Assembly (NCBI GenBank): GCA_964530845.1
Contig: CAZHBS010000002.1
Span: 20,778-84,777, forward strand
Length of the DNA stretch: 64,000 bases
DNA from: an uncultured Muribaculaceae bacterium
Lineage (GTDB): Bacteria; Bacillota_I; Bacilli_A; RF39; UBA660
Direction: 5' to 3'
The notes beneath the pieces are model-generated. The model was not told the origin of the DNA, did not search any database, and saw nothing but the letters and a program-made list of their open reading frames with translations. Positions 10,641 through 47,823 of this stretch are shown here, piece after piece. Made by a program: the position numbers and the translations under genes. Each line of letters begins with the position of its first letter. Within the stretch, counting starts at the first letter, position 1.

Positions 10641-11486
10641 TTAATCACTCCTTTTACTATCATTTAATAACTTAATTCTTTCTGCATTATCAAGTATGTC
10701 TAATTGATAATTACATATATCACTTAATACTTCAAATCTTTCTTCTTTCGATTTGCCTTCTTTAATTAACTCAGCATTATGTGATTCCAAATTTGATAAA
10801 ACCGTCAATTCATTTATAGAAGCATAATCTCTTACATTTGAGTTTTTTGCTAAATTTGGATTTAATTCTCTCCATTTTTTTGCAGTAGTATGAAATAAAA
10901 TTACGTTAAGAATATCAGCCTCTTCTGCGTATTTTAACCATTCTCTATCTTTATAAAAATCATTATCAGGCAAAATATAATTTTTAATAGCATCTGTATG
11001 AATTAAATAGTTATTCTTAGTAAGAATTCTTTTAACATCCCATTCTCTGTTTTGATTTTCTATTTCTTTTAATCTTTCAAATTCTTTAATTAAATATAAT
11101 TTAAATACTGGACTTATTGCAGATGCAAATTCAAAAGCAATATCTTTATGTGCATAGGTTCCACCATATTTTCCGCGTTTTGAATATATACCAATAGCAT
11201 TTGTTTTATTACACCATTCAGTAACACTTAATGTAAAAGTATGAAGGCCAGCATTTTTTCTAAACCCGTCGAATTCGACGGAATTAAAATCTGGATTATA
11301 AAGCAACTCCCAAGTTCCTAGAAATTCTAAAGTTATTCTATTTCTTAACCAGTTTCTTATAATATCATCTGAAGTAGATTTACCATCTTTAAACTTGGTG
11401 AAATCAGAAATACAAATATAATCTTTTTCGTTTACGCTAGTCACATTTACTCTCACATTTTGAACCTCTATTATTTTATTAGACAT
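10641..11486 (-). CDS. KilA-N domain DNA-binding protein
   Basis: The N-terminal ICISDFTKFKDG...IRNWLRNRITLEFLGTWE...GTYAHKDIAFEFASAISPVFKLYLIKEF pattern is typical of KilA-N proteins. Confidence 0.7.
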   Translation of the reverse strand: MSNKIIEVQNVRVNVTSVNEKDYICISDFTKFKDGKSTSDDIIRNWLRNRITLEFLGTWELLYNPDFNSVEFDGFRKNAGLHTFTLSVTEWCNKTNAIGIYSKRGKYGGTYAHKDIAFEFASAISPVFKLYLIKEFERLKEIENQNREWDVKRILTKNNYLIHTDAIKNYILPDNDFYKDREWLKYAEEADILNVILFHTTAKKWRELNPNLAKNSNVRDYASINELTVLSNLESHNAELIKEGKSKEERFEVLSDICNYQLDILDNAERIKLLNDSKRSD

Positions 11487-16392: not shown

Positions 16393-17268
16393 CTATATTG
16401 CATTCATTATTTTCCAGTACACTCTATTTTTTTTCTGTTCATCAACGTACTGATAACTCAACATATTATCTTTAGAAACTGCAGACATTTTTGTTTCACC
16501 TTCATACAAATCTCTAGTTCCTTTTGCAACACCTCCACCACGTTTAGCTACTTTCATATTTTCATTTAAACCCTGTGGTCGCTCATTTTTTGCAATATCT
16601 CTTGTTGCAATTTCTCCTATGTTTGTAAGTGCAACTTCAATATCTGCCATATTATCTCTTAATGATTCTTTTCTTAATCCTTTATATGCTTTATATTCGC
16701 TAGCCTTCATTCCAGACCAACCTTTGTAAATTTCATTTGTAAGTAAGGCATATTCATAGTTTTCATTAATTCCATTTTCTTTCCAAGTATCAGTTAAATT
16801 TTTTCTATTTAAAATTCCATTAAATCTCTCCGAAATCCATTTATCACTATATCCTCTTTTTCTATAATAATCTATTGCTCTATTAACTACTATTTCAGGA
16901 TTAAATACTTCATCAATCCTCTCACTGCCTAAGCCTGCTAACCACATTTTAAATGGCTCAGCTTTAGCTGACGGTACTGACTCAATAAGCCTTAAAATAT
17001 TTTGAGTATTAAGCATATCCGTATTTCTCATTTTTCCATCTTTAGCTTTTAATTTGAAACCGTCACAAATTGTGACGGTTTCATTTCCTTCAGAAATCAT
17101 CCTTGATTTTAAGGTTCTCCAATAATGTGCTAGATCGTTACTTTCTGTTAATGCGCCAATAACATCTACTACGCTAAAGTAATAATCCTCCTTTTCACTA
17201 TCCCAAATACTTCTAATTTCATTACCTTCAAATAAATTTGAAATTGTTTCTAATTTATAATCTTTCAT
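16393..17268 (-). CDS. Bro-N domain / DNA-damage-inducible protein D (DinD)-like
   Basis: FEGNEIRSIWDSEKEDYYFSVVDVIGALT (Bro-N), then PSAKAEPFKMWLAGLGSERIDE and a DinD-like C-terminal half. Confidence 0.7.
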   Translation of the reverse strand: MKDYKLETISNLFEGNEIRSIWDSEKEDYYFSVVDVIGALTESNDLAHYWRTLKSRMISEGNETVTICDGFKLKAKDGKMRNTDMLNTQNILRLIESVPSAKAEPFKMWLAGLGSERIDEVFNPEIVVNRAIDYYRKRGYSDKWISERFNGILNRKNLTDTWKENGINENYEYALLTNEIYKGWSGMKASEYKAYKGLRKESLRDNMADIEVALTNIGEIATRDIAKNERPQGLNENMKVAKRGGGVAKGTRDLYEGETKMSAVSKDNMLSYQYVDEQKKNRVYWKIMNAI

Positions 17269-17505: not shown

Positions 17506-18075
17506 TTATTTTTCTTTTTTAGCTATTATATTATAAAAATGCCACTTTTTATGATCAGACTCTCTTATATATTCTATCTCATCAAATTTTAAAACTTTAT
17601 ATTTTTCTAAATACTTTTTCGCAACTTCTATTTTAAAAGTATTAATGTCTTTTCTTCTTCTCCATGCATCTCTATTTCCAAATAATTGACCAACAAAATA
17701 GCCATTATCTTCAATACAATCATAAATCTTATCCCATAATTCATCAAACTTCTGAGGATTACAAAAAGGAATACTAAAAGACGCAAGCAATAACTCTGTC
17801 TTAGGAAGTTCTACATCTTCGAAATTACACTCAATAAAAGAAACATGCTTTGCTTCCTCTGCACTTAATCTATCAAGTATAAATGATTTATTTAAATGAT
17901 TATCTATAGAAGTAACTTTAATACCTTTTTTTAATAAATACACTGACTCATTGCCACTACCACAGCCTAAGTCAACAGCAGTCCCAACACTATAATTATT
18001 ACAAAAATATTCTAATAACTTTGAAACATCATTATTGTAAGTTCTTTTCTGATAGTTTTCCCACTTTTCCATCAC
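17506..18075 (-). CDS. Class I SAM-dependent methyltransferase (TehB-like)
   Basis: Motif I VDLGCGSGNESVYLLKKG. Confidence 0.8.
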   Translation of the reverse strand: MMEKWENYQKRTYNNDVSKLLEYFCNNYSVGTAVDLGCGSGNESVYLLKKGIKVTSIDNHLNKSFILDRLSAEEAKHVSFIECNFEDVELPKTELLLASFSIPFCNPQKFDELWDKIYDCIEDNGYFVGQLFGNRDAWRRRKDINTFKIEVAKKYLEKYKVLKFDEIEYIRESDHKKWHFYNIIAKKEK

Positions 18076-18512
18076 TACACTTCCTCACCATATCTCATAA
18101 AATATCTAGTTTCTGTTTCCTTAATAATATTAAAACCTAACTTTTCATATAAAGAAAAAGCTTTTCTATTTAATTTATAAACCCATAAATAAACAATATC
18201 ATTTTCTAAAATAATTTTATTAATTATATCAGTTCCAATACCTTTATTTCTATAATCCTCTTCTAAATAAATCTCATCAATTAATACTCCATCATTATTT
18301 TTATTAACTAATAAACACCCAATCTTTTTATTATTTATACATATTATTTTGTAAGTTTCCAACTCCAGAGGAATATTCTTTTTAACATATTCATTTATTT
18401 TCTCTAACTCTTCACTAGATAAATTATCAGCATAATCAAGAATACTCTTTAACTTATAATCAGTTAATCTATCAATATCACTTTTACTAGCACTTTCAAG
18501 TTTATAATCCAT
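18075..18512 (-). CDS. GNAT-family N-acetyltransferase
   Basis: YRNKGIGTDIINKII acetyl-CoA-binding motif; about 145 aa. Confidence 0.8.
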   Translation of the reverse strand: MDYKLESASKSDIDRLTDYKLKSILDYADNLSSEELEKINEYVKKNIPLELETYKIICINNKKIGCLLVNKNNDGVLIDEIYLEEDYRNKGIGTDIINKIILENDIVYLWVYKLNRKAFSLYEKLGFNIIKETETRYFMRYGEEV

Positions 18513-18515
18513 TAA

Positions 18516-19046
18516 TTATGCACTTCTTTCATTAATCACTTTTCTTAGTCTATTCTTATATCTAATAGGAAGTAACTTCTTTACTTTACCCTCTTCATCT
18601 ACTTGTACCTCTGGAATATAAATACCAGTTTTTAATTCAATATAATCAGCTACTATTCTTCTATGACAAAATTCATCAATAGGCTCATGACAAAGTAAAA
18701 TTATATCTCTTCCAAATTTACTTTCTAAAGTAGCAAGTAACTCAAATACATCTAAATCTTTAAGTCTTAAATCATAATAACTTCTAATATATTCATCTTC
18801 GATTTTCTTTCTATATTCAGTGTACTCCTTTAATCTTAAAGCATCCTGTTTCAATTTTAAAAGTTCTTCATACTTTTCAGCATAAGGAGTATAAGTAACA
18901 AGCCTTGGAGCTAGTTTTTTATAAGCAGGTCCAAAATACCCCCAAGCATTGCCTCCGTCCCCTGTAATTGAAACTGTATTACCACTTTTTACATCATAAT
19001 AATTACCTGTTCCTAAAATAATTTTTGAAATATCCAACTTTCCCAT
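18516..19046 (-). CDS. DUF488-family protein
   Basis: KKLAPRLVTY ... ILLCHEPIDEFCHRRIVADYI matches the DUF488 LAPS...LLC-E...CHR signature. Confidence 0.55.
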   Translation of the reverse strand: MGKLDISKIILGTGNYYDVKSGNTVSITGDGGNAWGYFGPAYKKLAPRLVTYTPYAEKYEELLKLKQDALRLKEYTEYRKKIEDEYIRSYYDLRLKDLDVFELLATLESKFGRDIILLCHEPIDEFCHRRIVADYIELKTGIYIPEVQVDEEGKVKKLLPIRYKNRLRKVINERSA

Positions 19047-19063
19047 AAATACCCTCTATATAA

Positions 19064-19519
19064 CTATTTTATTTTTTCTTCTAACTTGTTCAAAAAATAC
19101 AACTGGTTCTTTATAATCTTTTTCCTCGCAACATCAATACTCATCCATTCATATTTATCCATTTCAGGATACACACAAATATTTCCAGACCCCTTTGGAT
19201 TTTCTAATTCAAAAGTATTACTTTTACAGTTTCCTAAATCAAAATCAGCATTAGTATAAAACATTATAGCTAATTTTTTTCTACTAATTTTCTTTGTACC
19301 TAAATAATCAATTGCAGAATTTAATTCTAAATTAGTCTCTTCCCTAAACTCTCTTCTTGCAGTATCTATTGCCCTCTCACCTTTATTAATTTCTCCTTTA
19401 GATAAAGACCAACCACCTGCATCTACATCTTCCCAATAAGGTCCTCCAAAATGACATAATAAAACTTTTAAAACATCATTTTCAATTTTATAAGCTAAAA
19501 CACCTGCACTTCTTCTCAT
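19064..19519 (-). CDS. NUDIX hydrolase
   Basis: NUDIX box GEINKGERAIDTARREFREETNL. Confidence 0.8.
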   Translation of the reverse strand: MRRSAGVLAYKIENDVLKVLLCHFGGPYWEDVDAGGWSLSKGEINKGERAIDTARREFREETNLELNSAIDYLGTKKISRKKLAIMFYTNADFDLGNCKSNTFELENPKGSGNICVYPEMDKYEWMSIDVARKKIIKNQLYFLNKLEEKIK

Positions 19520-19577
19520 ACATCCATCTTCCTCAAATCTCTTGCAATCATTATAATTAGAATTAAATCCATCTCTA

Positions 19578-20117
19578 TTAAACTTCTTTTAAAATATCTA
19601 AAAATTCTGTATATCCAGACTCAGTATTTATATGTCCTCCATTTTTTATAATATATTGTTTATCAGTTAATTTATCTGCAAAATCTTTTTCTACATCAAA
19701 CTTAACATATGGATCATTATCAGAATAAAAACATACAATATCATCACAATATTTTTTTACATCATCAAAATTATCAATAAACATTGGTTCATTAACAGCA
19801 TCAAAATCTTTATCTATTCCCAAATAATTATTAAAACCACAGACAAAAATTAATTTATTAACTTTTATTTTATTTGTAATAAGATATTTACAAACAAAAA
19901 TAGGCGCAATACTATGAGCAATTATTATGGTATTCTCATCAATTTTTAATTTACTAAATTCTAAAGACCAACTATCAAAATTTTGTACTCCTACACCAAC
20001 TGGCATTTGTGGAACTACAACATTTCTATCTTTTTTCTCTAATTCATTTTTTAACCATGGAAACCAATTCCCATCTTTTGAACCAAAACTTCCATGCAAT
20101 ATAATATAATTCTTCAT
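19578..20117 (-). CDS. Alpha/beta serine hydrolase (YdeN/RBBP9-like)
   Basis: IILHGSFGSKDGNWFPWLKNEL and the nucleophile elbow AHSIA. Confidence 0.6.
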   Translation of the reverse strand: MKNYIILHGSFGSKDGNWFPWLKNELEKKDRNVVVPQMPVGVGVQNFDSWSLEFSKLKIDENTIIIAHSIAPIFVCKYLITNKIKVNKLIFVCGFNNYLGIDKDFDAVNEPMFIDNFDDVKKYCDDIVCFYSDNDPYVKFDVEKDFADKLTDKQYIIKNGGHINTESGYTEFLDILKEV

Positions 20118-20133
20118 AAATACACTCCTCTCT

Positions 20134-20592
20134 TTATTTTATTAATCCACCATTACATTTTAATTCATATATTTTTTTATCATTTTTATAAATAGATTCA
20201 ACTCCACTAAAATTATCTAAATCACCTAAAACTTCAAAAGTATATTTATACTCACCATTAATAAATTCTCTAGGTCCTCTAACAGGTATAATACCATCTT
20301 CACCAACATGCATTAAAGCAGGACGAAGAGCCTTATCCATTGCTTCTTCTCCCATAGATTCATCTAAAGTAACACCATAATAATTCATTCCCCAATAAAT
20401 TTTATTACTAATATAAACTACTTCTTCACCAATAAAGTTTGTTCCTCCAAAATAAGTATCATGATATATCATATTATCATGACTAAATTCATAGTCTTTA
20501 GAACCAACCCTTGAACTATTAACCTTCTCCACATTTTCATTCGCATAAGTTTGCATTTTAGCAAGTACTAAAAATTTTTCTAATTCTTTCAT
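20134..20592 (-). CDS. DUF5680-like protein
   Basis: The FLVLAKMQTYA ... YHDTYFGGTNFIGEEVVY ... WGMNYYG pattern is recalled from DUF5680 proteins. Confidence 0.45.
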   Translation of the reverse strand: MKELEKFLVLAKMQTYANENVEKVNSSRVGSKDYEFSHDNMIYHDTYFGGTNFIGEEVVYISNKIYWGMNYYGVTLDESMGEEAMDKALRPALMHVGEDGIIPVRGPREFINGEYKYTFEVLGDLDNFSGVESIYKNDKKIYELKCNGGLIK

Positions 20593-20603
20593 ATTAAACT
20601 CTC

Positions 20604-21083
20604 CTATATATAATTTTCTTCTTCTATTTTTTTAACAAATTTATATTTTTTATAAGCCATATCTATCGCATCATCTAATAATAAGTTCCCAGCTTCTTCA
20701 TAATTTAAATAACCTTTTACATTCTGAGTATTGACCAAAAATCTTTCATATATCTTACCAGTATCAACATCAACACACTTATTGTTAATCTCACTTATTC
20801 TTCCAATCATTCTAACTTGAGCATAACGCTCATCGTTTTCTTCTACTAATAAATATCCAAGATAATAAATTTCATCAAGTTCTATATTAACTTCTTCAAT
20901 AAACTCTCTTTTGAGTGTTTCCTCATAACTTTCTCCATCTTCAGGTCTACCACCAGTTAGTTTATATTTTCCATCTTCTATTCTAAGTAATATTCTTCCA
21001 TCCTCTGAAAACGCAACACCATAGACTTGTCTAACTTTTAAATTATCGGGAACTTCACATCTATTCCAAGTATATTTAACCAT
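20604..21083 (-). CDS. NUDIX hydrolase
   Basis: NUDIX box GGRPEDGESYEETLKREFIEEVNI. Confidence 0.8.
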   Translation of the reverse strand: MVKYTWNRCEVPDNLKVRQVYGVAFSEDGRILLRIEDGKYKLTGGRPEDGESYEETLKREFIEEVNIELDEIYYLGYLLVEENDERYAQVRMIGRISEINNKCVDVDTGKIYERFLVNTQNVKGYLNYEEAGNLLLDDAIDMAYKKYKFVKKIEEENYI

Positions 21084-21651
21084 TATTTGTCTCCTTACTT
21101 AAAATTAATTTTATTTTACTAACTGCATTCCCATAATTTATATCATTCAATAAATCATTAGAAGAAACCCATTTATAATTAGAACACTCTTCTCTATCTA
21201 AAACAGCATCACATACCTCATTAACAAAAAATAAATATCTAAAATCAAAATGATAATGTTCAGGCATATTTACTCTTTCATTAAAAGGAATAATATGTGT
21301 ATCAATATCAATTGGAATATCTCCATCATTAAAAATAGTAAAATTACTTAGTCCTGTTTCTTCAATTAACTCTCTTTTTGCTGCAGCAACTAAACTTAAA
21401 TCACTAGAATCAACATGTCCTCCAGGATATAAATACATCTTTAAATCTCTATGGTATAAAACTAAAAATTTATCTTCCCTCTTACAATAAACAAATGCCC
21501 CAACAGTAATATGCCCATTTGTATTATTCCAATCAAACCTACTCTTTGAATTATTTTTCTTTAAATAATTCTCAAAAATAGACAATCTATCTTTTTCATC
21601 AGGAAACTTTTCTAAATAACAAGTAACAATATCTTCTACAGTATTAATCAT
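21076..21651 (-). CDS. NUDIX hydrolase
   Basis: NUDIX box GGHVDSSDLSLVAAAKRELIEETGL. The start was trimmed to MINTVEDIV, preceded by TAGGTGAT. Confidence 0.75.
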   Translation of the reverse strand: MINTVEDIVTCYLEKFPDEKDRLSIFENYLKKNNSKSRFDWNNTNGHITVGAFVYCKREDKFLVLYHRDLKMYLYPGGHVDSSDLSLVAAAKRELIEETGLSNFTIFNDGDIPIDIDTHIIPFNERVNMPEHYHFDFRYLFFVNEVCDAVLDREECSNYKWVSSNDLLNDINYGNAVSKIKLILSKETNNG

Positions 21652-21711
21652 AATATCACCTAAACTACTAATTATTATAACATAAAAGAGTAGTATCAAA
21701 CTACTCTCAAA

Positions 21712-22767
21712 TTACTCATTATCTTTAGATATACTGCTAAGGATTTCAATAACTGTATCATGATTAAAATAATCATCATTTGAATTCCAAAAAGATATTC
21801 CATAAAGATCTTCATTATATTCATCATTAAAACTTAAATAAGCATTATTATGATATTTATCCCCAAGAAAATATTCATCAAAATATCCATTCAAATCATT
21901 TTCTAAATAATAAAAATTATCACTTGCAGATATAACGCGTTCAGTATACACTCTTGCAATATAATTAATTTTAATGTCATCACTCTTAGCAAATAAGTTT
22001 TGTTTAAAGTCACGATTTTTCTCATAGAATCTAACTAAATCAATAGTATTATTAATATTATATTTATCAAATAAGCTATTAATATCTAACCAAGGAAGAG
22101 TAGTACTTCTAATATCAAGATAATCCAAATTTTTTATATTCCATCTTGAATTACAAACAGTCATAAATGAACCATAATTATCTTCATCAACAAAATTCTT
22201 AATATATAAATTACACTCATCAGAAACAAGTGAAAATTTAGCCTTGTCAGTAATAAGTTCAAATCCTTCTGGAATATAAATATTTAAATTATTTAAAACC
22301 TTTGAATTAGCTTTACCATTATTATTTACTTCAATATTCTTAATTTCTACATTATAAGGAAATGCCTCTTTTGTAAGTTGAGGATTATCATCTATATAAA
22401 AATAATATGCAAGAAAACACTTATGAAGAAAATAAATTGCTATTAAAAATATAATAAAAGAAACAATCCTTCTAATTCTCTGATTTCTCATTCTATTATT
22501 ATATTCAACTACACTAATAAAATTTTCTTCAAACTTTTTTTGATAATCTTCATTATCTATCTTTTCTCCAGAAAGAAGTTCATTAATAGTAATATCCAAC
22601 TCCTTACATAGATCTTGAAACATAGAATAATCTGGTGAACTACCACCATTCTCCCACTTAGAAATAGTACGATTACTAACTCCTAACTTTTCTGCTAACT
22701 CTACTTGTGTTAAGTCTTTTTCTTTTCTCATCTCCTGAATAAATTTTCCAATCTTCTTCTGATTCAT
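21712..22767 (-). CDS. Membrane-anchored XRE-family HTH regulator (paralogue B)
   Basis: LTQVELAEKLGVSNRTISKWENG HTH, one TM helix at about aa 100-125, and a C-terminal domain of about 220 aa with no family I recognise. Confidence 0.8.
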   Translation of the reverse strand: MNQKKIGKFIQEMRKEKDLTQVELAEKLGVSNRTISKWENGGSSPDYSMFQDLCKELDITINELLSGEKIDNEDYQKKFEENFISVVEYNNRMRNQRIRRIVSFIIFLIAIYFLHKCFLAYYFYIDDNPQLTKEAFPYNVEIKNIEVNNNGKANSKVLNNLNIYIPEGFELITDKAKFSLVSDECNLYIKNFVDEDNYGSFMTVCNSRWNIKNLDYLDIRSTTLPWLDINSLFDKYNINNTIDLVRFYEKNRDFKQNLFAKSDDIKINYIARVYTERVISASDNFYYLENDLNGYFDEYFLGDKYHNNAYLSFNDEYNEDLYGISFWNSNDDYFNHDTVIEILSSISKDNE

Positions 22768-22811: not shown

Positions 22812-23891
22812 CTAAAATATATATTTAGGAGTTTCTTCTTTATCCATATAAGTACTACTAATATAATCTAATGTATTATCAGAATTAAAATAATCTTCAT
22901 TATTATTTTTATATGTTATTCCATATAGATATTCATTATCTTGATAATCGAAACTTAAAACAACATGATTATAATACTTATTTTTTTTATCTAAATGTTC
23001 TAAAAAGTACCCATTCAAATCTTTCTCTAAATAACAAAAGTTATCACTTGCAGGTAAAACTCGACTAGTATATTCTCTTGCGATATAATTAATTTTAATG
23101 TCATCACTCTTAGTAAACATATCTTGTTTAAAGTCTCGATTTTTCTCATAGAATCTGATCAAATCAATACTATTTTTAATGCCATATTTATCAAGTAATC
23201 CATAAACATCAAGCCAAGGAAAAGTAGTGCCTACAATTCCATCATATTCAAGATTACTAATATTACCACGCCTAGAACAAACATAAATCATCGCATCATA
23301 ATTTTCATCATTAATAAATCCTTTTGCATAAAAATCGCAATCATTATTAACATAATTAGACTTTGCCTTATCTGTTATTAACTCAAATCCATCTGGAATA
23401 TAAACATTTAAAAAAGTCTGAGATTTTGTATTAGCCTTATCATTTTTATTTACTTGAACTGTTTTTATCTTTGTATTATATGGGAAAAAATTTTTGGTAA
23501 GTTCTTCATTAACATCTGCATAATATACATACGCAATAAATATTTTATAAAAAAAGAAAATTAATACTAAAAAGACAACAAAAATAAAAAATCTTTTAAA
23601 CTTTTGATTTCTCAATCTATTATTATATTCAACTACACTAATAAAATTCTCTTCAAACTTTTTTTGATAATCTTCATTATCTATTTTTTCTCCAGAAAGG
23701 AATTCATTAATAGTAATGTCTAACTCTCTACATAAATCTTGAAACATAGAATAGTCTGGCAATCCTCTTCCATTCTCCCACTTAGAAATAGTACGATTAC
23801 TAACTCCTAACTTTTCTGCTAACTCTACTTGTGTTAAGTCTTTTTCTTTTCTCATCTCCTGAATAAATTTTCCAATCTTCTTCTGATTCAT
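22812..23891 (-). CDS. Membrane-anchored XRE-family HTH regulator (paralogue A)
   Basis: Same architecture as paralogue B. The first 95 or so residues are nearly identical to it. Confidence 0.8.
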   Translation of the reverse strand: MNQKKIGKFIQEMRKEKDLTQVELAEKLGVSNRTISKWENGRGLPDYSMFQDLCRELDITINEFLSGEKIDNEDYQKKFEENFISVVEYNNRLRNQKFKRFFIFVVFLVLIFFFYKIFIAYVYYADVNEELTKNFFPYNTKIKTVQVNKNDKANTKSQTFLNVYIPDGFELITDKAKSNYVNNDCDFYAKGFINDENYDAMIYVCSRRGNISNLEYDGIVGTTFPWLDVYGLLDKYGIKNSIDLIRFYEKNRDFKQDMFTKSDDIKINYIAREYTSRVLPASDNFCYLEKDLNGYFLEHLDKKNKYYNHVVLSFDYQDNEYLYGITYKNNNEDYFNSDNTLDYISSTYMDKEETPKYIF

Positions 23892-23989
23892 CTTCTACTA
23901 CCTCCGTATAATAAAATTGTATCAAAATAATAAAAAAAATAATACGAACAATCCGTAGACTTTAAAAAAAAAGACTAAAATTAGCCTTT

Positions 23990-24805
23990 CTAAATAAAAA
24001 TTTCTTTCATAAAAGTTTTTTCTCTTTCACATTCTTCAAATGCTATAGGATAATACTCACGACATTTATTAAATTCATAAATCATTTCAGCATTATCAGG
24101 AATACTTGCTAAAGCATCTATTGTCATTTCATAAAAAGGAATCATTGTACTTAAGTTATCTCTCTCAGCTGTTTGTTCTTCATAATGCTTTTTAAATTCT
24201 CCCGTAAGTTCACTTACTTTATAAGATGATACCACATCAAATCCATAATTTTCCCTAAAGAAAGAACTCTTAATAATTCTCTTAGTTAGTGTATCAACTA
24301 GATATAATTCTCCATCTATTTCTACCTCAACAAAAGGTCTCACATCATCAATTCTAACTCCTCTTGTAGGAGAAGTATAAAACACATTATAATGAGTCGC
24401 ATCAGGAAAAACTGAACCAACACAAGTATTAGGATCATATACACAATATCTCATATACTTACTAGGTGGTTTAGTTAAAAATAAAGAAATAGGAATACCT
24501 GCAGAAACAACTATACTCTTCTTCCTAAACTCTTCTTTCATCCATTGAGGAATACCACATATATTAGGATGTTTATCATAAACATAATGATTTAAATCAT
24601 CTCTAATACATAAATTATCAAAATCCAAAGACTCTTTATTTGGATCAATCAATCCTTTATAAACTAGTGCATCCATAATAGTTGCCTTAACTGCTTCTCT
24701 TTCTAAATCACTCATGTTAGGATGACTTTCTATATAATCTAAAATATGTTGACATCTATAAAACACTTCATTAACTAAAAAATCATAATCAACTAAACTC
24801 TTCAT
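23990..24805 (-). CDS. Hypothetical 271-aa protein
   Basis: ORF trimmed to MKSLVDYDF, preceded by GGGGTGAG. I recognise no family. Confidence 0.45.
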   Translation of the reverse strand: MKSLVDYDFLVNEVFYRCQHILDYIESHPNMSDLEREAVKATIMDALVYKGLIDPNKESLDFDNLCIRDDLNHYVYDKHPNICGIPQWMKEEFRKKSIVVSAGIPISLFLTKPPSKYMRYCVYDPNTCVGSVFPDATHYNVFYTSPTRGVRIDDVRPFVEVEIDGELYLVDTLTKRIIKSSFFRENYGFDVVSSYKVSELTGEFKKHYEEQTAERDNLSTMIPFYEMTIDALASIPDNAEMIYEFNKCREYYPIAFEECEREKTFMKEIFI

Positions 24806-24861
24806 AATCTCACCCCAAAAATCCCACCTATTATAACACATTTATAATAAAAATAATATAA

Positions 24862-25620
24862 CTAATCATGATAATTAAGACAATAAACATTAAGAGGACA
24901 ATTAATGCAATCTCTCTTATTACAAAAAGAGTTTCCAATTTCCCATAAATATTTATCAATATCACTTGGACTAATTCCAAGTCTTTTTGAAACACTAACA
25001 TAAGTATTAGAAATATTCTCAATATCTTTACTATTTACCTTTTTACTATTAATTACTCCAGTTAAATAACTAATCTCAATATCATGTCTATCTATTGGAA
25101 TACAAGATACTTCACTAAATTTACAAATATGTGCATCACATATAATTCTAATTAATAACCCACCTGTTTTTTGACCATAACCTTTAATACTTTTTATAAA
25201 AGAATTTAACTTATCAAAACTTTTAATATTACTTAAATAATCATAAATATTATCATAATTTGCTAAAACATTAGATAGATTAATCCATTTGTCTACCGCA
25301 ACATTTGGGTATCTTGGATGAACATTATTTATAATAATATCTTTTAATGAATCATAATCCATATTAATTACAATATTTGGATTAAAAATATTAGGATAAT
25401 TATTATAAGTATTAACTAAATTCTTGTGATAAATTATTGATCTCATTCCATAATCTAATAAACAAGAATAAAACATATATAATAAATACATATTAGTTCC
25501 ATATTTAATATTTGAAGGATAATCTATATTCGCAATTTCCCTATCATTTTTAAAATACTCATCTAATCTTTTAACAACATCAATACATCTTTTAGTATTA
25601 ATAACTAATTCATTACTCAT
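24862..25620 (-). CDS. HhH-GPD / endonuclease III-like DNA glycosylase candidate
   Basis: HhH-like IKGYGQKTGGLLIR, then IPIDRHDIEISY and a C-terminal four-Cys loop CNKRDCINCPLNVYC (C-x4-C-x2-C-x5-C). Confidence 0.5.
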   Translation of the reverse strand: MSNELVINTKRCIDVVKRLDEYFKNDREIANIDYPSNIKYGTNMYLLYMFYSCLLDYGMRSIIYHKNLVNTYNNYPNIFNPNIVINMDYDSLKDIIINNVHPRYPNVAVDKWINLSNVLANYDNIYDYLSNIKSFDKLNSFIKSIKGYGQKTGGLLIRIICDAHICKFSEVSCIPIDRHDIEISYLTGVINSKKVNSKDIENISNTYVSVSKRLGISPSDIDKYLWEIGNSFCNKRDCINCPLNVYCLNYHD

Positions 25621-25652
25621 TTATATTCAACTCTCTTAAACTCAAAATAATC

Positions 25653-26243
25653 CTAAACAATATAATCTTTATAAATATTCATATATTTTTTTATAGAACT
25701 ATCAACATCAATCCAATAATAATTTGTTAAAGTATCATCATATGGATCAATCTCTGATTTTTCTAAAACTCCTCCTAAAGCAAGTATTGTTTTATTAGAA
25801 CCAATATTATCATAAACACAATCAAGAAGTACTCTTTTGACTCCTAATTTTGACTCTTCTAATAAAGCATAATATAAAGCAATCTTAGCATAACCCTTTC
25901 TTCTCTCACTCGGTCTTATTCCATATCCTATGTGAGACCATCCGCATCTCATTTTCTCCTCTGTAACATTCCATCTAATATTAATCATTCCAATAATTCT
26001 ATTATCGCTTTCTCTAATTACGAAAAAAGTCCTAGATGGGCATCTATCATTTTCTAATGCATAATCAAAATCTTCTTTATTTTGAAGTTCAATAAGCCAC
26101 TCTTCATAACTAATTATATCAAGACATCTATCTAAACTCCCAGATCCATTTAAATCTGATTTATACTTAACATGCTCATCTAAATAATCAAGTGCTTCAT
26201 TCTTTCGCTTAATTGTAGGAACTTCTAAAAATAACTTATCCAT
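25653..26243 (-). CDS. GNAT-family acetyltransferase
   Basis: IGYGIRPSERRKGYAKIALYYAL and a GNAT C-terminal half. Confidence 0.75.
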   Translation of the reverse strand: MDKLFLEVPTIKRKNEALDYLDEHVKYKSDLNGSGSLDRCLDIISYEEWLIELQNKEDFDYALENDRCPSRTFFVIRESDNRIIGMINIRWNVTEEKMRCGWSHIGYGIRPSERRKGYAKIALYYALLEESKLGVKRVLLDCVYDNIGSNKTILALGGVLEKSEIDPYDDTLTNYYWIDVDSSIKKYMNIYKDYIV

Positions 26244-26245
26244 GA

Positions 26246-26650
26246 TTAATCATCCCCTAGATTATAATTCCATATTCCTAATTGACCTTTCGCAACTATT
26301 GGTTCATCAAGTACTTTAACATTTTTTAAAATCCAAGCATATCTTCCCTTAGAATACTCACCAGTTATAAATTCATTGTTATTATTTTTAATCTCACAAA
26401 CAAACTCATCAGTCATCAAAACACAATCAACTAATTCGCATTCACAAATTATCTTGCCATAATTTAATAATCTATCACCAACTAAGTCCATCAATTCTTT
26501 ATTATTTTTTGATTCTTTAGTCATCTTTGTAGAACTAGCATGAATATAAAGTTTTCCCCTATAATTAGTTTTCCAACTTCTAGTTTCTATTTTTTTAACT
26601 CCATCTTTTATTAAAGTTGCATAAGGCTCTGTTAAACTTAATACTTTCAT
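26246..26650 (-). CDS. ASCH domain protein
   Basis: The LSLTEPYATLIKDGVKKIETRSW...LYIHAS pattern is typical of ASCH/PUA-like proteins. The start was trimmed to the ATG after GGAGG. Confidence 0.65.
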   Translation of the reverse strand: MKVLSLTEPYATLIKDGVKKIETRSWKTNYRGKLYIHASSTKMTKESKNNKELMDLVGDRLLNYGKIICECELVDCVLMTDEFVCEIKNNNNEFITGEYSKGRYAWILKNVKVLDEPIVAKGQLGIWNYNLGDD

Positions 26651-26663
26651 ATTTTCCTCCAAT

Positions 26664-27230
26664 CTAATAATTAGTTCTTAATTCATATATTACAATTCTT
26701 TCATTATTAATCCCAACATTAATATCAAATAAAGAAAACTCAACAATAACATCTTTTAATTCATGTTCAATAATATATTGATATAAAAAATCAAAACAAG
26801 GAATATCATTAAGTCTATTATCAAATATATCTGTTTTTAAATTAAATTCAGGTTTCTTTAAAGCATCTCTAACTGATGCATAAGGATTAGTTGATAAAAC
26901 AGCATAAACTCCTCCATCAGATAAGATTTCAACTTCTCCAACTAATAATTGATTATCAGAATAATTAATAGAACTAACATTAATCGAAAATAAATCATAC
27001 TCTTTAATTTCATTAAAAACTTCATTACCTGGAACTTTTAATTTAAACACTCCACTAGAATTAGACTTATCTCTTATCGCATAATATTTAGCTGGATATT
27101 TATCTAAAAATTTCTTAATCTTTGAAACATCGTTATTTGTAAATAATCCCTCAGGTAATTTATTTAAACCTAATTTATTAATTGCTTCAATACTTTCTAA
27201 TTTATTATTAATTTTAATATTTTCACTCAT
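26664..27230 (-). CDS. Hypothetical 188-aa protein
   Basis: ORF only. Translationally coupled to both neighbours, with 1-nt and 9-nt gaps. Confidence 0.45.
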   Translation of the reverse strand: MSENIKINNKLESIEAINKLGLNKLPEGLFTNNDVSKIKKFLDKYPAKYYAIRDKSNSSGVFKLKVPGNEVFNEIKEYDLFSINVSSINYSDNQLLVGEVEILSDGGVYAVLSTNPYASVRDALKKPEFNLKTDIFDNRLNDIPCFDFLYQYIIEHELKDVIVEFSLFDINVGINNERIVIYELRTNY

Positions 27231-27239
27231 AATAACCTA

Positions 27240-27830
27240 CTATTCAAATTCAAAATCATTAACACTATAACCTAATTCTTTTAATGTATCAAAAATTACA
27301 TTAGGAGATAATCCAAGTAAAGTATTATAGTCACCAACAACTTGATCAATAAACAAAGATGCTTTTCCTAAAGGAACATAACCACAACATTTAAAGACTT
27401 TTTCCTCTTTATTAACATACCACTCAATTTCTTCATCAGTTATCTTTCTAAAATGAACATCCACTTTAGTTGAAAAAGAAATAGTTTTATCTTGATATAA
27501 ATCAATTATTGTAACACCAGTATAAGCAGTATTAACTTTACCTGATAACTCTTTCAAATTATTAATTGCTTCTTCCTTTGTTTTAGGTTTTTCATACTTC
27601 TTATCGTTTGCCCAAATAATCGTATCACACCCAATTATAATTGCTTTATCAGTAACTTTCTCCTTAACAGAATTTGCCTTATTTAAAGAAAGTTCTGCAA
27701 CATATTTAGAAGGATCTTCTAGACAACTATCCTCCTCTACATCACTAACTAAAACATCATATTTTAAACCAATCATTTTAAAAATATCTTGTCTTTGCTT
27801 TGATGAAGATGCTAAAATTATTTTTTTCAT
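27240..27830 (-). CDS. maf: Maf-family nucleoside triphosphate pyrophosphatase (divergent)
   Basis: KIILASSSKQRQDIFKMIGLKYDVLVSDVEE, IIGCDTI, KPKTKEEA and AYTGV. The usual DKAGAYGIQ segment reads FKCCGYVPLG. Confidence 0.75.
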   Translation of the reverse strand: MKKIILASSSKQRQDIFKMIGLKYDVLVSDVEEDSCLEDPSKYVAELSLNKANSVKEKVTDKAIIIGCDTIIWANDKKYEKPKTKEEAINNLKELSGKVNTAYTGVTIIDLYQDKTISFSTKVDVHFRKITDEEIEWYVNKEEKVFKCCGYVPLGKASLFIDQVVGDYNTLLGLSPNVIFDTLKELGYSVNDFEFE

Positions 27831-27834
27831 AAAA

Positions 27835-28536
27835 TCACCTACTTATATATTTCCATATTTTCCTATATTGTTCTAATTGTTCTTCACTCTTTATTTGAGC
27901 AACAGGATGATATAAAGGAATAATTACATAATCATTAACATTTATTATATCTAATTTTTTAATACATTCACTAAGTGTATTATAAATATTAAAATCAAAT
28001 ATCTTTGATAAAGAAAACAAAGGATAATATCCTAAAGTTAAAATAACTCTTGGTTTTACAATATCAATTTGCCTATAAAGGAATTCACTGCAATTTAGTG
28101 TCGATTCCTTTAGATTTATATTATTACCACGATATTTCAAACCACTTCTTGCACACATAATTGCATTAGTAACATAAATTTCATCTAAAGAATAAGTATT
28201 ATTAGAAGACTCTCTAATAAAATATTCTAACCTTTTCTTTGTTAAACTCTCCTCAGAATTAATTAAACTTTTCCAATTACTTTTATCATTATTTAATCTA
28301 TCGTAAAATTTTTTCATCTCAACATATGGACCCCAGTCTTGACCAATTATCATTATATCTGCATCAAGTCTATTAAACCAATCAGTCCAAACAGATGGAA
28401 TATTCATACAAAAATCTTTATCTTTAAATATATTTATTAAAGATTTTTGAGCACACTTCATATCAGTACATTTAATACATTTTCCTAAATCATTAATTAA
28501 ACAATTAAATTTATCAATCTTCATAATAGACACCAC
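27835..28536 (-). CDS. Uracil-DNA glycosylase superfamily protein, atypical motif A
   Basis: IMIIGQDWGP (motif A position), VTNAIMC and PLYHPVAQ (motif B position). The start is uncertain: either the GTG at 28536 or the ATG 12 nt downstream. Confidence 0.55.
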   Translation of the reverse strand: MVSIMKIDKFNCLINDLGKCIKCTDMKCAQKSLINIFKDKDFCMNIPSVWTDWFNRLDADIMIIGQDWGPYVEMKKFYDRLNNDKSNWKSLINSEESLTKKRLEYFIRESSNNTYSLDEIYVTNAIMCARSGLKYRGNNINLKESTLNCSEFLYRQIDIVKPRVILTLGYYPLFSLSKIFDFNIYNTLSECIKKLDIINVNDYVIIPLYHPVAQIKSEEQLEQYRKIWKYISR

Positions 28537-28541
28537 TAATA

Positions 28542-29711
28542 TTAATTAATCAACTTACACTTTTTCAACTTTTCATTATCACAAATATTAGTAATAAACT
28601 TCATTAATACAAAGAAAATTACAATCATCATAAGAACAGGTCCCCATTTATAAGTAGAAGGATTATAAGTTAATTTATAAATAATATAATATGTAATTAA
28701 AGAAACAATATTTATTAATATCGGAACAAAAAACTTCAAATTAACAGTAAACAATAATATTATACTAAATACGTCTCCCATATATAAATATCTCTCATGC
28801 ATACAAGGTAGGAAAAAATAACACATAACAATAGATAATAAAGTAAGAATTAAAATACATGATGATGTAAAATTACGTCTTTTAATAAATGCAAAGACAA
28901 GTAGTAAAAAGAAAAGAAATCCTGTAAATAAAAACCCTATAACATTAGTCATATGACTAGAAGTTAAATAATTATAAATATTTAAAGAATTCATTACACT
29001 TGAACTATACTCTCCTACTTGTAAAAAATAAATCTTATAAGTATGAAAGAAATCAGCTCCTGCAGCAATAGCTGGTAAACACATAATTTGATTAACTAAT
29101 GGTATCAACAAAAAATGCCATAATTTAACATTCTTTTTGCAGAAAAAAGCAATAATAAATACTGGTAAAACAAAGACCGCTTGTAACTTAAATGAAATAG
29201 CTACTCCGAAAGAAACAAATGCTGGAATGATTTTATCATCACTTAAAAAATATATTGATAATAATGCAAAAAAAGTATAAATAGAATCACATTGTCCCCA
29301 CCAAGAAGAATTCAAAAACATAGTTGGAGAAAATATTAAAAGTAAAAAGCATAAAATCACATCAGTATTTTTATAATTTTTCTTATATTTAATAACAAAA
29401 CAACATCCAAGGAAAGCAAGTAAATAGTCAAATATTAAAGAAAATATCTTAATAAAATAAAGAGGTTCAACCTTTATATAAGATAATAAACTTAAAAAAG
29501 TAAGATATGGAAGATTATAATCTGAAAAAGTATTTTTTAAAGCATAAATACCCCCATTATTTCTCATATAATTAACCCAATGTACTAAAAAAGAATTATA
29601 ATCACCTGATTGATAAGAAAAATAAGAATATCTAACAAGCAAAGATATAATAATCCCTATAATAATTATAATTTTACTTTTTCTAGACATATTTTTAAAA
29701 TACTTAATCAT
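28542..29711 (-). CDS. Polytopic membrane protein, Gpi18/GT-C-like mannosyltransferase candidate
   Basis: 389 aa with about 11 TM helices and an N-terminal loop YQSGDYNSFLVHWVNYMRNNGG...YNLPYL. First gene of the tightly packed unit. Confidence 0.4.
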   Translation of the reverse strand: MIKYFKNMSRKSKIIIIIGIIISLLVRYSYFSYQSGDYNSFLVHWVNYMRNNGGIYALKNTFSDYNLPYLTFLSLLSYIKVEPLYFIKIFSLIFDYLLAFLGCCFVIKYKKNYKNTDVILCFLLLIFSPTMFLNSSWWGQCDSIYTFFALLSIYFLSDDKIIPAFVSFGVAISFKLQAVFVLPVFIIAFFCKKNVKLWHFLLIPLVNQIMCLPAIAAGADFFHTYKIYFLQVGEYSSSVMNSLNIYNYLTSSHMTNVIGFLFTGFLFFLLLVFAFIKRRNFTSSCILILTLLSIVMCYFFLPCMHERYLYMGDVFSIILLFTVNLKFFVPILINIVSLITYYIIYKLTYNPSTYKWGPVLMMIVIFFVLMKFITNICDNEKLKKCKLIN

Positions 29712-29744: not shown

Positions 29745-29783
29745 AAGAAATAATAAAAAAATAAAAATCTATAAGTAGATTTT
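29745..29783 (-). terminator. Intrinsic terminator after the VanY-like gene
   Basis: Minus strand: AAAATCTA-N4-TAGATTTT followed by TATTTTTTTT. Confidence 0.5.
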
Positions 29784-30931
29784 TATTTATATTCACTGTC
29801 TATTCCAAAATAATCTTCAAGAGTAATCCAGTCTCCGTTATTATATAATTTACTTGCAAGTTCAACTCCAACATACCTAAAATGCCATGGCTCGTATTTG
29901 TAACCTGTCTCATCTGACTTACCCTTAGGATATCTCAAAATAAACCCATACTTGTAACAATTATCATTAAGCCAATTAGCTTCTGGTGTACCAGCGAAAG
30001 AATCATTTATTGTATTAACATCAAATGCTAAACCAGACTGATGTTCAGAATGTCCTGCACGAGCAGAATATGTATCTGCTTCTGCTCTACCATCATTTTT
30101 AACATAATTATTATAAATTGTTTTCTGTTTACTATATGATCTAAAACCACTAGAAATATAGATATTAATTCCATCCTTACTAGCAGCATTTTTCATCTTA
30201 TCAAAATTAGATTTTGTTAATGAAGTAAGTCCATCTCCATAATCATGTGGTAAAGAATATGCCTTATTAACTATTAAATATCCATCAATATAAGTAACTC
30301 CATCTCTAACTTCAATATCATAACCTTTAGATGTTTTATTATTATCATTATTTACTATCTTTTCATCTTTTTTAGATTTACTAACATTAAGTATAAACTT
30401 CTCACGACTCTCATTACCACTAGAATCCTTTGCTACATAGTAAAGCTCATATATACCAATCTTATCAAGATTATAATCTCCCTCAACACTTACATTAATC
30501 TCTTCATTAGAATTGTCACTTACACTAACTCCTTCTAATAAATCAACTTCATCCCCTACTTCAGCATAAACTTCATAGTTAAATTTAATTACAGGTTTCT
30601 CATCATCATAAACATTAACGGTATATTTGTATGTAGATTTCTTCTTAAAAATATCCTCAACTTCAATATCAACATCATAAACTCCTACTTTAGAAGTATT
30701 AACAATACGCTTTTTAGTAATAATCTTTCCATTTTTTAAAACTTCAACATTATCAAGATTATATATTTTATCATTGACAGATACATCAATATCTTTATCA
30801 TATTTAACAACTAATTTATGAGTATCTAAATAAAAATAGCATAAAAAAGCTCCAACAATTAAAAAATTAATTGTTGTAAATAAAATACAAACCTTTTTCT
30901 TTAATCTAAGTTTTTTCTTTTTATTATTCAT
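29783..30931 (-). CDS. VanY/M15B D-alanyl-D-alanine carboxypeptidase with N-terminal anchor and Ig-like (DUF5011-type) domains
   Basis: SGFRSYSKQ, AGHSEHQSGLAFD and EPWHFRYVG zinc-peptidase motifs. The start was trimmed to MNNKKKKLRL, ahead of the TM helix. Confidence 0.8.
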   Translation of the reverse strand: MNNKKKKLRLKKKVCILFTTINFLIVGAFLCYFYLDTHKLVVKYDKDIDVSVNDKIYNLDNVEVLKNGKIITKKRIVNTSKVGVYDVDIEVEDIFKKKSTYKYTVNVYDDEKPVIKFNYEVYAEVGDEVDLLEGVSVSDNSNEEINVSVEGDYNLDKIGIYELYYVAKDSSGNESREKFILNVSKSKKDEKIVNNDNNKTSKGYDIEVRDGVTYIDGYLIVNKAYSLPHDYGDGLTSLTKSNFDKMKNAASKDGINIYISSGFRSYSKQKTIYNNYVKNDGRAEADTYSARAGHSEHQSGLAFDVNTINDSFAGTPEANWLNDNCYKYGFILRYPKGKSDETGYKYEPWHFRYVGVELASKLYNNGDWITLEDYFGIDSEYK

Positions 30932-39680: not shown

Positions 39681-40598
39681 TTATTTAATATCAAGTTTAA
39701 ATGAATACCAACAAGTACCAATTTCACTTAAAGTATCTAATTTCACATAAAATGTTCCTTTAATATTTGGCACTACGAAACTATATTCATCGCTATCAAT
39801 TTCTATGTCAATGGGTTTATTATTTTCAGTACTATATAATGTAACATCATGGATTTTTATTGTATCATTATTTATTGAAATTATATCGTTAAATGAAGCC
39901 TCTAAATATTGACTATATTTTATTTTTGTTAAAGGTATGGCGTCACTACAAGTATTTACTTCCAGCCCATTGTTAACTGTTTTTATACAATATGAACCTA
40001 TTTGTGTTAAGATTCGATTTCTTTTATTAATAACACTTAATGATGGTGGTGTTATAATCGGTGGTGAGACATTCCATGAAAATATATAAAATCCAAATTT
40101 AATATTATCTTCAAAGCTATCATTAGAGTTCTTATATCTAATCATTTTATATCCGAAACCAATATAAATATCTTTTGAATTGCTTCCATATATTTTCAGC
40201 ATATAATCTGTTTTTTCCCCTCTTAATACATTATTATAATCTGAAATAAACATAACAACACACATAGATATAAATATTAAAATTGTTATTATTAAATATT
40301 TTTTTTTAATCTTCGAAACTTTTTTATTAGAATAATCAATTGTTCTAATCAATAATTTGTCAGTTACATCAATGCTATTATCATTTTTTATTTTTTCACC
40401 ATTTAACAAATCACTAACAGTTATATTTAATATTGCACATAATGGTTCAAAAAGTGAAACGTCTGGCATACATCTTCCATTCTCCCACTTACTCACAGCT
40501 TTATCAGTCACATTTAACTTCTCTGCCAGTTCTTTTTGAGTCAATTTTTGTTTTTTTCTAAGTGTTGCAATATATTTTCCAATTTTTTCTATATTCAT
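39681..40598 (-). CDS. Membrane-anchored XRE-family HTH regulator (third, distant copy of this architecture)
   Basis: LTQKELAEKLNVTDKAVSKWENG, one TM helix and a unique C-terminal domain. The start was trimmed to MNIEKIG. Confidence 0.75.
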   Translation of the reverse strand: MNIEKIGKYIATLRKKQKLTQKELAEKLNVTDKAVSKWENGRCMPDVSLFEPLCAILNITVSDLLNGEKIKNDNSIDVTDKLLIRTIDYSNKKVSKIKKKYLIITILIFISMCVVMFISDYNNVLRGEKTDYMLKIYGSNSKDIYIGFGYKMIRYKNSNDSFEDNIKFGFYIFSWNVSPPIITPPSLSVINKRNRILTQIGSYCIKTVNNGLEVNTCSDAIPLTKIKYSQYLEASFNDIISINNDTIKIHDVTLYSTENNKPIDIEIDSDEYSFVVPNIKGTFYVKLDTLSEIGTCWYSFKLDIK

Positions 40599-40778
40599 AC
40601 AATCACCTTTGTTATTGCAATTATAGCACGTACAATAAAAAATAGTTGTATACTTGTGGTAGAGTTTCAATTAATATATATAAATTAATCATTTAGTTAT
40701 GAAGTTGTTAATAAAAAGTAGACACTAAAAAAGTATTATTGAAACACCAATCGAGTATACTGAACTAGGATTTTATTT

Positions 40779-47653: not shown

Positions 47654-47823
47654 ACATAACACTTCCCTTTCACATCAAAAATCATTCCTAATTAAATCCT
47701 ATCCTATGTTAAAATATTACTCCATATGACACAATTTGTCAAAATAATATTTAAAGAAAAAAAGAAAAACTTTTTCTTTTTTATTAATTGTAATTTCAAC
47801 CGCACCATTTTATTTATAAATAT

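Follow-up and report, generated by a model that had tools for sequence, protein, structure and literature searches.

Gene order and predicted activities of a string of small enzyme genes around a GQDWG-type uracil-DNA glycosylase homologue in uncultured gut Bacilli

Does the presence of two different DNA glycosylase folds within one apparent operon mean that all the genes of that operon serve the same process? The question is raised by six genes on the minus strand at positions 24862-28536 of a stretch of 64,000 nucleotides (nt; hereafter the window) of contig CAZHBS010000002.1, from the genome assembly (GCA_964530845.1) of an uncultured bacterium. They encode, in the direction of transcription, a protein of the uracil-DNA glycosylase (UDG) superfamily (UDG233), a Maf-family nucleotide pyrophosphatase, a protein of 188 amino acids (aa), an ASCH-domain protein, a GNAT acetyltransferase and a divergent HhH-GPD glycosylase/lyase-like protein of 252 aa (HhH252). 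An earlier note on this DNA proposed that these open reading frames (ORFs) constitute a dedicated unit, possibly for the surveillance of modified bases or for defence against phages. On comparison with other genomes this six-gene "module" dissolves, and it matters little as a system. With a confidence somewhat better than even, the six ORFs are part of a lineage-specific, probably co-transcribed string of eight genes for independent housekeeping enzymes, which would lie on the leading strand of a compact genome of 25% guanine plus cytosine (GC) in an uncultured gut Bacilli lineage.

Gene order and layout of the string

The order of the six genes is fully kept in only one other locus (L004), where the proteins are 90-97% identical to those of the window and the flanking genes are syntenic too. 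Because it is near-identical and has syntenic flanks, this locus carries no information on selection. Elsewhere, orthologues of UDG233, the 188-aa protein, HhH252 and Maf (44-73% identity) lie in many unrelated neighbourhoods, which argues against a dedicated six-gene surveillance module. UDG233 orthologues of 65-70% identity adjoin genes for QueH/RuvB and RhuM, or for a NUDIX protein, a deaminase and a second UDG, or for YlqF, RNase HII and TopA. In the one distinct context found for the 188-aa protein, its orthologue (67% identity) follows a DHH/DHHA1 gene among unrelated genes. No UDG, Maf or ASCH gene is found in the six HhH252 contexts, and none of the five partner genes accompanies Maf in the nine metagenome loci anchored on it (44-73% identity). 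The adjacency of the six genes is specific to this species or genus; in the loci compared they are essentially not co-conserved beyond their near-identical copy, an outcome that the earlier note had itself named as one that would refute its proposal.

The same picture emerges from 80 UDG-anchored loci of different species, in which the partners were sought by tblastn within 10 kb of UDG233. An ASCH gene was present in 11 of these loci, HhH252 in 10 and the GNAT gene in three; Maf and the 188-aa protein were each found in 0/80. The genes that flank the unit in the window, used as a control, occurred near UDG233 in 0-2 of the 80.

Three of the families were also searched individually. Those of the 188-aa protein, UDG233 and HhH252 each comprise hundreds of clusters at 90% identity; the hits listed by the searches have about 51-72% identity, and nearly all of the named ones come from metagenome-assembled genomes (MAGs) of uncultured Bacilli, one HhH252 match being labelled Ruminococcus sp. 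A species-level genome scan recovered relatives of UDG233 in 134 species, none above 70% identity; the exact UDG protein of the window has no record either, so that the window's own species is absent from these collections. The labels of these species are inconsistent (uncultured Bacilli, Tenericutes, Clostridia, Muribaculaceae) and include Candidatus Onthousia and Candidatus Faecimonas; MAGs of the lineage itself carry the names Bacilli, Tenericutes, Candidatus Onthousia and Candidatus Faecimonas. Both glycosylase families seem to be long-standing residents there.

The layout of the genes in the window was also reassessed. The ORF listing bears out six minus-strand ORFs separated, mechanically, by 32, 2, 1, 9 and 4 nt, as first described, but two of the starts used in that count are too early. 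The TTG "start" of the ASCH gene falls inside the ribosome-binding site GGAGGA that precedes the actual start, ATG 26650, and homologues indicate that the UDG gene probably starts at ATG 28524. With these corrections the gaps become about 32, 2, 13, 9 and 4 nt. Spacing of this kind is the norm here. In the simple gene model of the window used for gap statistics, which is 92% coding and places 66 of its 71 genes on the minus strand, the median gap between same-strand genes is 31 nt and 53% of such gaps are 35 nt or shorter; the spacing of the six ORFs is therefore not distinctive, and the unit is no tighter than its background.

Nor does the tight run consist of six genes. It holds eight and extends from 23990 to 29711. 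Its first gene (28542..29711, minus strand) encodes a 389-aa polytopic membrane protein that has no Pfam or NCBIfam match; it is separated from the UDG gene by 5 nt, or by 17 nt if the corrected UDG start is used. Its last gene (23990..24841, minus strand), 20 nt after the HhH252 gene, encodes a 283-aa protein for which searches of Pfam, NCBIfam, PADLOC and PHROG gave no significant family. Terminator-like hairpins followed by U-runs are present at the two ends only, RNA folding having revealed no hairpins in the gaps inside the run. One hairpin (29752..29788, minus strand) lies directly after a VanY-type gene, folds with -9.2 kcal/mol (z -4.36 relative to shuffles) and would form the upstream boundary of the transcription unit. 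The other (23964..23991, minus strand) begins at the stop codon of the 283-aa gene, consists of the stem GAAAGGCUAA/UUAGUCUUUU and then a U-run, and would form the downstream boundary. Both are AT-rich; they were spotted by eye and by folding and were missed by a consensus terminator scan. Spacing and hairpins together suggest that the eight genes are probably co-transcribed, in a unit that begins with an unrelated membrane protein.

UDG233, HhH252 and their companions

UDG233 is encoded at 27835..28536 (minus strand) and has 229 aa from its probable start. Profile searches confirm its membership of the UDG superfamily (PF03167, 45.1 bits against a cut-off of 24.3, E 1.4e-11). The unusual motif A, GQDWGP, to which the earlier note had drawn attention, is invariant in the alignment of 30/30 homologues, as are C20, C23, C128 and C149, N124, and H210-P211 of motif B. 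The four invariant cysteines are predicted to be ligands of a 4Fe-4S cluster, as in family 4. The best relative in the PDB is indeed a family-4 UDG (4zbx, E 2e-8), aligned over the C-terminal half only, and UDG233 remains below the curated family-4 models (30.7 bits against 125.3 for TIGR00758, 41 against 250 for NF040953). No UNG or BdiUng structure was found among its PDB sequence matches at E values up to 1.

The motifs of UDG233 recall two distinct families. The CxxC...C...C pattern, the TNxxxC strand and the HP of motif B are shared with family-4 enzymes such as Thermus UDGa and the Sulfolobus tokodaii UDG (4zbx); however, motif A reads GQDWGP instead of the family-4 form GE(A/G)PG (motif A definitions in PMC5449639), and there are insertions before and after it. 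The G-Q-D at the start of the water-activating motif A is shared with family 1 UNG and with BdiUng, but W-G replaces their P-Y or P-A. BdiUng (Blr0248, motif GQDPA) has a family-4-like fold with a family-1-like active site and no Fe-S cluster (PMC5449639). UDG233 similarly combines a family-4-like scaffold with a family-1-like motif; unlike UNG and BdiUng, which lack the Fe-S cysteines, it has four invariant ones. Judged by its motifs, the GQDWG/Fe-S group fits no described UDG family. A literature search returned nothing for GQDWG, nor for a UDG-ASCH-NUDIX system. As an Fe-S-type glycosylase, UDG233 would excise uracil, or a related pyrimidine altered by deamination or oxidation, and so generate an abasic site.

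The UDG233 family is nearly absent from phage collections, where one phage record and one IMG/VR contig were found. The former is Bacillus phage SPR, an SPbeta-like prophage, whose spr_108 (L103:4980-5636) is a full-length homologue of 26% identity that keeps CxxC, GQDWG, TNAILC, NC and YH. The GQDWG family is thus not confined to the gut Bacilli lineage. In some genomes there are two UDG233 paralogues, located on separate contigs of the same assembly (L015/L068, L078/L088), and two ORFs of the UDG233 cluster can also share a locus, adjacent to each other in L036 and two genes apart in L019. A plain housekeeping uracil glycosylase would not usually be duplicated in this way.

HhH252 (24862..25620, minus strand) is more difficult to place. 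In Pfam and NCBIfam profile searches it is above no curated Nth, Ogg2 or AGOG family threshold, with 16.8 bits against 26.1 for AGOG and 19.3 against 183 for PRK01229. When a profile of its family was searched against the PDB, MjOgg (3fhf) was aligned across the K and D motifs with no better than E 0.078. Its AlphaFold2 model (pLDDT 90.6) retrieves with Foldseek MjOgg, DrEndoIII-1, E. coli EndoIII, MutY and MIG at TM scores of 0.6-0.64, with probability 1.0 for MjOgg, EndoIII and MutY, and membership of the HhH-GPD superfamily is confirmed at the level of this predicted fold. All of 34 homologues have K151 (in GYGQKT), D177, H179, D180 and C233, and conservation of C238, C241 and C247 reaches 90% or more. 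K151 aligns with the lysine of the MjOgg GIGYK motif and D177 with the catalytic aspartate motif of the same enzyme; a lysine at this position of the HhH would mark a bifunctional glycosylase/lyase. The description of HhH252 as an EndoIII-like HhH protein with a four-Cys loop is therefore supported by the predicted fold and by the conserved K151, D177 and cysteines, and is not supported by sequence scores, all of which are sub-threshold.

A C-terminal cluster of four cysteines is a feature that HhH252 shares with EndoIII and MutY. The spacing is C-x4-C-x2-C-x5-C (C233, C238, C241, C247), whereas that of EndoIII is C-x6-C-x2-C-x5-C; Ogg2 enzymes are not known to have such a cluster. The N-terminal third of HhH252 is unrelated in sequence to Ogg2/AGOG and to EndoIII. 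The protein could act as an Ogg2/EndoIII-like bifunctional glycosylase/AP lyase on damaged bases, and could also nick abasic sites.

Like UDG233, and unlike HhH252, Maf, the ASCH protein and the GNAT protein score above curated thresholds for the families to which they had been assigned from the letters of the sequence, so that four of the five family assignments are confirmed by profile. Maf (27240..27830, minus strand) matches PF02545 (E 1.6e-46) and, over its full length, TIGR00172 (153.1 bits against a cut-off of 117.15). Alignment with 1ex2 and 4p0e shows that the catalytic Ser, Arg, Glu, Lys, Asp and Lys are kept (S-x-x-R, EE, K, the D of GxDT, and KP). The segment FKCCGYVPLG, which had marked this protein as divergent, does align with DKAGAYGIQG of Bacillus subtilis Maf and E. 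coli YhdE. Orthologues keep the variant motif FKCCGYVPL, and more distant relatives have LER(C/A)GYS. The window Maf thus differs from the Maf/YhdE enzymes in lacking the DKAGAYGIQ loop of the YhdE type (dTTP/UTP pyrophosphatase). This loop contains the base-contacting glutamine of YhdE. The protein would be a nucleotide pyrophosphatase with an altered base-recognition loop, involved in sanitation of the nucleotide pool. A 207-aa NUDIX protein of the window has homologues of 42-46% identity that are encoded immediately upstream of Maf in four metagenome loci.

The ASCH gene (26246..26662, minus strand; 134 aa from ATG 26650) is assigned by PF04266 (33.2 bits against a cut-off of 21.2, E 8.9e-8) and by phrog_3193 (E 1.3e-37), and its product matches the ASCH domain of human TRIP4 over the full length (E 5e-7). 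It carries the octapeptide GxKxxExR, as G-V-K-K-I-E-T-R, which defines the "GKER" subgroup (bioRxiv 10.64898/2026.02.27.708502). The octapeptide and the full-length similarity to the TRIP4 domain liken it to GKER-type proteins such as TthASCH, EOLA1 and the TRIP4 domain, although its identity to the characterised members is low. All 19 of the 19 ASCH proteins assayed in that study, GKER members included, removed N4-acetylcytidine (ac4C) from tRNA, and one GKER-type protein was also active on the free nucleoside (bioRxiv 10.64898/2026.02.27.708502). The window protein may accordingly be named a candidate ac4C amidohydrolase acting on RNA or nucleosides. The GNAT acetyltransferase (25653..26243, minus strand), of the Acetyltransf_1/_3 type, matches PF00583 (E 3.9e-9) and PF13302 (E 4e-8); a weak match to the acetyltransferase domain of MccE (3r95) puts it with the RimJ/MccE-like type.

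The 188-aa protein (26664..27230, minus strand) could not be placed by the earlier note, and sequence searches leave it there: it has no match in Pfam, NCBIfam, PHROGs, PADLOC or, by phmmer, the PDB, a profile of its distant members gave no placement against the PDB, and neither did Pfam searches with 35 members of the family. Matches to lectins and GTPases were rejected as noise (E >0.03). Its fold, on the other hand, is suggestive. The AlphaFold2 model (pLDDT 82.5) retrieves RimK, Ddl and SucC with Foldseek (E about 1e-5, probability 1.0), with a query-normalised TM score (TMq) of only ~0.5 and a root-mean-square deviation of ~6 Å, and a minimal, stand-alone ATP-grasp-like fold is predicted. 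The conserved residues R53, E164, E183 and R185 would be compatible with an ATP-grasp. Among 1.84 billion proteins the family counts 194 representatives, and its members are nearly always stand-alone proteins of ~185 aa. One of the distant relatives that were aligned also matches the N6_N4 DNA methylase profile (E 4e-18), and may be a fusion or an assembly artefact.

What is new at this locus is confined to uncharacterised representatives of superfamilies already described, above all the UDG family with GQDWG and Fe-S cysteines. Together with the short-Cys-loop HhH-GPD protein, the Maf with a rewritten loop and the ~185-aa ATP-grasp-like protein, this family belongs to the uncharacterised enzymes that abound in uncultured gut Bacilli. 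Characterisation of UDG233 would extend the map of UDG families and show how reduced genomes of 25% GC handle cytosine deamination.

Recurring neighbours of UDG233 and rival explanations

If the six genes do not travel together, do any of them keep company with UDG233? The 1264 ORFs of the 80 UDG-anchored loci were clustered de novo into 696 protein clusters, and the loci were grouped into 27 clades by UDG identity of at least 70%. The neighbourhoods are highly variable, yet certain small genes keep returning in them: HhH252 (cluster c11), another family of ~250 aa whose AGOG match is sub-threshold (c5), ASCH, a MutT-like NUDIX, a second UDG (c10), RhuM, KilA-N, and SnoaL-like, peptidase S51 and SDR genes. 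Similarity between c5 and HhH252 is only marginal (hhalign E 0.003, probability 10%); c5 was not accepted as a homologue, and both are termed "HhH-type" with that caveat. An HhH-type gene (c5 or c11) lies within one gene of UDG233 in 8/27 clades and within five genes in 10/27. Within five genes, the second UDG is present in 9/27 clades, ASCH in 6/27 and NUDIX in 5/27, while SDR is found in 4/27, RhuM and KilA-N in 3/27, and YlqF, SnoaL and peptidase S51 in 1-2/27. The arrangement differs from clade to clade (HhH->UDG, UDG->c5, HhH->ASCH->UDG, UDG->ASCH), on varying sides of UDG233. Maf, the 188-aa protein and the GNAT protein are outside the recurring set.

This distribution suggests a loose neighbourhood of base-excision repair and sanitation genes around UDG233. 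The theme of house-cleaning or repair that had been proposed for the unit is thereby retained in part: the families of UDG233, HhH252 and Maf and the recurring UDG neighbours are in its favour, and the absence of Maf, the 188-aa protein and the GNAT protein from the recurring set is against it. The proximity of UDG and HhH-type genes does not indicate a fixed multi-component machine. Another source of the pattern around UDG233 may be that these genes sit together in a variable interval ahead of ylqF-rnhB. The conserved block rplS-lepB ... ylqF-rnhB-topA recurs at UDG233 loci. The interval from rplS-lepB to ylqF-rnhB-topA behaves as a variable slot in L012, L014, L025, L027, L036 and others, with changing mixes of UDG233, HhH252, GNAT, NUDIX and RhuM genes.

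Genes of mobile-element type can be seen near UDG233 as well. The window has a KilA-N-domain gene and, nearby, a Bro-N gene (10641-11486 and 16393-17268, minus strand); the KilA-N gene is 84% identical to a gene of a different species (L052:7772-8617) located two genes upstream of the UDG233 orthologue. Compared with the 51-70% typical for orthologues, this identity suggests recent horizontal movement.

In the preferred explanation, a string of eight genes whose housekeeping products act independently, a plausible link would exist solely between UDG233 and the HhH glycosylase, as consecutive activities of base-excision repair, with a hand-off from one to the other. Several observations weigh against it. 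Co-transcription is deduced solely from spacing and hairpins, and the promoter consensus scan was uninformative in DNA of 25% GC (91 matches against 108 expected from shuffles). Correlation of divergences, used as a test of vertical inheritance, gave mixed results (rho 0.04 to 0.72) and was not taken as evidence either way; the divergence of UDG233 and that of the neighbouring YlqF gave the lowest value, rho 0.04, and strictly vertical inheritance is not demonstrated. Since motif A of UDG233 matches no characterised family, uracil as its substrate is an assumption. Finally, other species often have RhuM, KilA-N and recombinase genes close to UDG233, which resembles the mobile-element link of defence glycosylases (bioRxiv 10.1101/2025.10.29.685425).

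A smaller dedicated system could be hidden in the string. Its core would be UDG233 plus an HhH-type glycosylase/lyase, perhaps joined by NUDIX and by ASCH, the latter serving to read bases in the manner of a PUA domain or to deacylate them; these would be selected and co-regulated for one class of damaged or modified bases, the Maf, GNAT and ATP-grasp genes being passengers. Of all genes immediately next to UDG233, those of HhH type are phylogenetically the most widespread (8-9 clades), they are found to both sides of it in different combinations, and the flanking control genes of the window are hardly ever found there; the divergences of UDG233 and c5 also gave the highest rho, 0.72, in the mixed and discounted correlation test. 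The association is loose, however, at about one locus in eight per partner, and UDG233 is found in 0/6 of the HhH252-anchored loci. Moreover, the HhH-type evidence pools two families whose similarity is marginal, both genes often lie in the variable interval described above, so that relic synteny could explain their proximity, and the activity reported for GKER-type ASCH proteins is removal of ac4C in tRNA and, for one of them, from the free nucleoside, which is not a DNA function. Such a system therefore seems unlikely. The opposite view, in which there is no functional theme and every adjacency, that of UDG and HhH included, arose by chance as genes were shuffled in a compact, strand-biased genome whose small accessory genes pile into shared variable intervals, would account for the 696 clusters found among 1264 neighbouring genes, for the tight spacing throughout the genome and for the recurrence of unrelated SnoaL, peptidase S51, SDR and RhuM genes. 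After grouping by clade, though, the unrelated families prove to be restricted to 1-4 clades, whereas HhH-type genes, the second UDG, ASCH and NUDIX reach more clades than any others; we regard a complete lack of theme as quite improbable.

The strongest form of the earlier proposal, an anti-phage or modified-base surveillance module in which glycosylases of the Brig/Dag type attack modified phage DNA with the aid of helper enzymes, is less credible still and must be considered very improbable. Defence glycosylases are known with both HhH and UDG folds (PMC11078745; bioRxiv 10.1101/2025.10.29.685425), and UDG233 and HhH252 belong to the same two superfamilies as Brig1/Brig2 (UDG fold) and Dag (HhH fold). 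Two glycosylase folds within one operon, a UDG motif A unlike that of any repair family, the homologue in Bacillus prophage SPR, and the RhuM, KilA-N, Bro-N and recombinase genes that recur near UDG233 in some other species and in the window would all be compatible with such a role. Brig1, Brig2 and Dag, however, are reported to have a patchy distribution, a link to mobile elements and an atypical composition (bioRxiv 10.1101/2025.10.29.685425). Compared with these descriptions, rather than with the sequences themselves, the present unit has no island-like composition (GC 0.248, against 0.260 for the window) and no defence genes nearby according to PADLOC. The families of UDG233 (134 species), of HhH252 and of the 188-aa protein occur widely in Bacilli MAGs, a distribution that looks more like that of resident genes than of patchy island cargo; phage collections contain almost no member of the UDG family, the six genes lack co-conservation, and their neighbours in the window are ordinary small enzymes. 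PADLOC gave no significant match, with a library that dates from 2023 and from which Brig and Dag may therefore be absent. Weak PADLOC matches (REase_II at E 6e-4 on the UDG N-terminus, AbiEii, PDC-M11B) were rejected as sub-significant and partial. There is no tRNA or integrase in the neighbourhood of the unit, and tRNA and Rfam scans of the window were empty. Highly doubtful, too, is a variant in which UDG233 and HhH252 or c5 form a lineage-wide pair for a non-canonical base other than uracil or 8-oxoguanine (for example a phage-type modified pyrimidine or purine), as a resident Brig- or Dag-like immunity of gut Bacilli in which a PUA-like ASCH protein would read or deacylate an acylated base.

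Other features of the window

The unit is followed, a short way downstream, by an array of small genes of the house-cleaning type (17506-21699, minus strand). It includes three NUDIX genes (21076-21699, 20604-21083 and 19064-19519, minus strand) and a second GNAT gene (18075-18512, minus strand), together with genes for a DUF5680 protein, a serine hydrolase, a DUF488 protein and a TehB-like methyltransferase. An HD protein is also encoded in the window near the unit, and the sanitation theme thus continues outside the six genes.

Two tandem paralogues (21712-22767 and 22812-23891, minus strand) encode proteins in which an HTH_3 domain at the N-terminus is combined with a membrane segment, and their N-termini are nearly identical; a third paralogue of this HTH_3/membrane type is located 16 kb away (39681-40670, minus strand). 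The largest ORF of the window encodes a protein of 1675 aa (42635-47662, minus strand).

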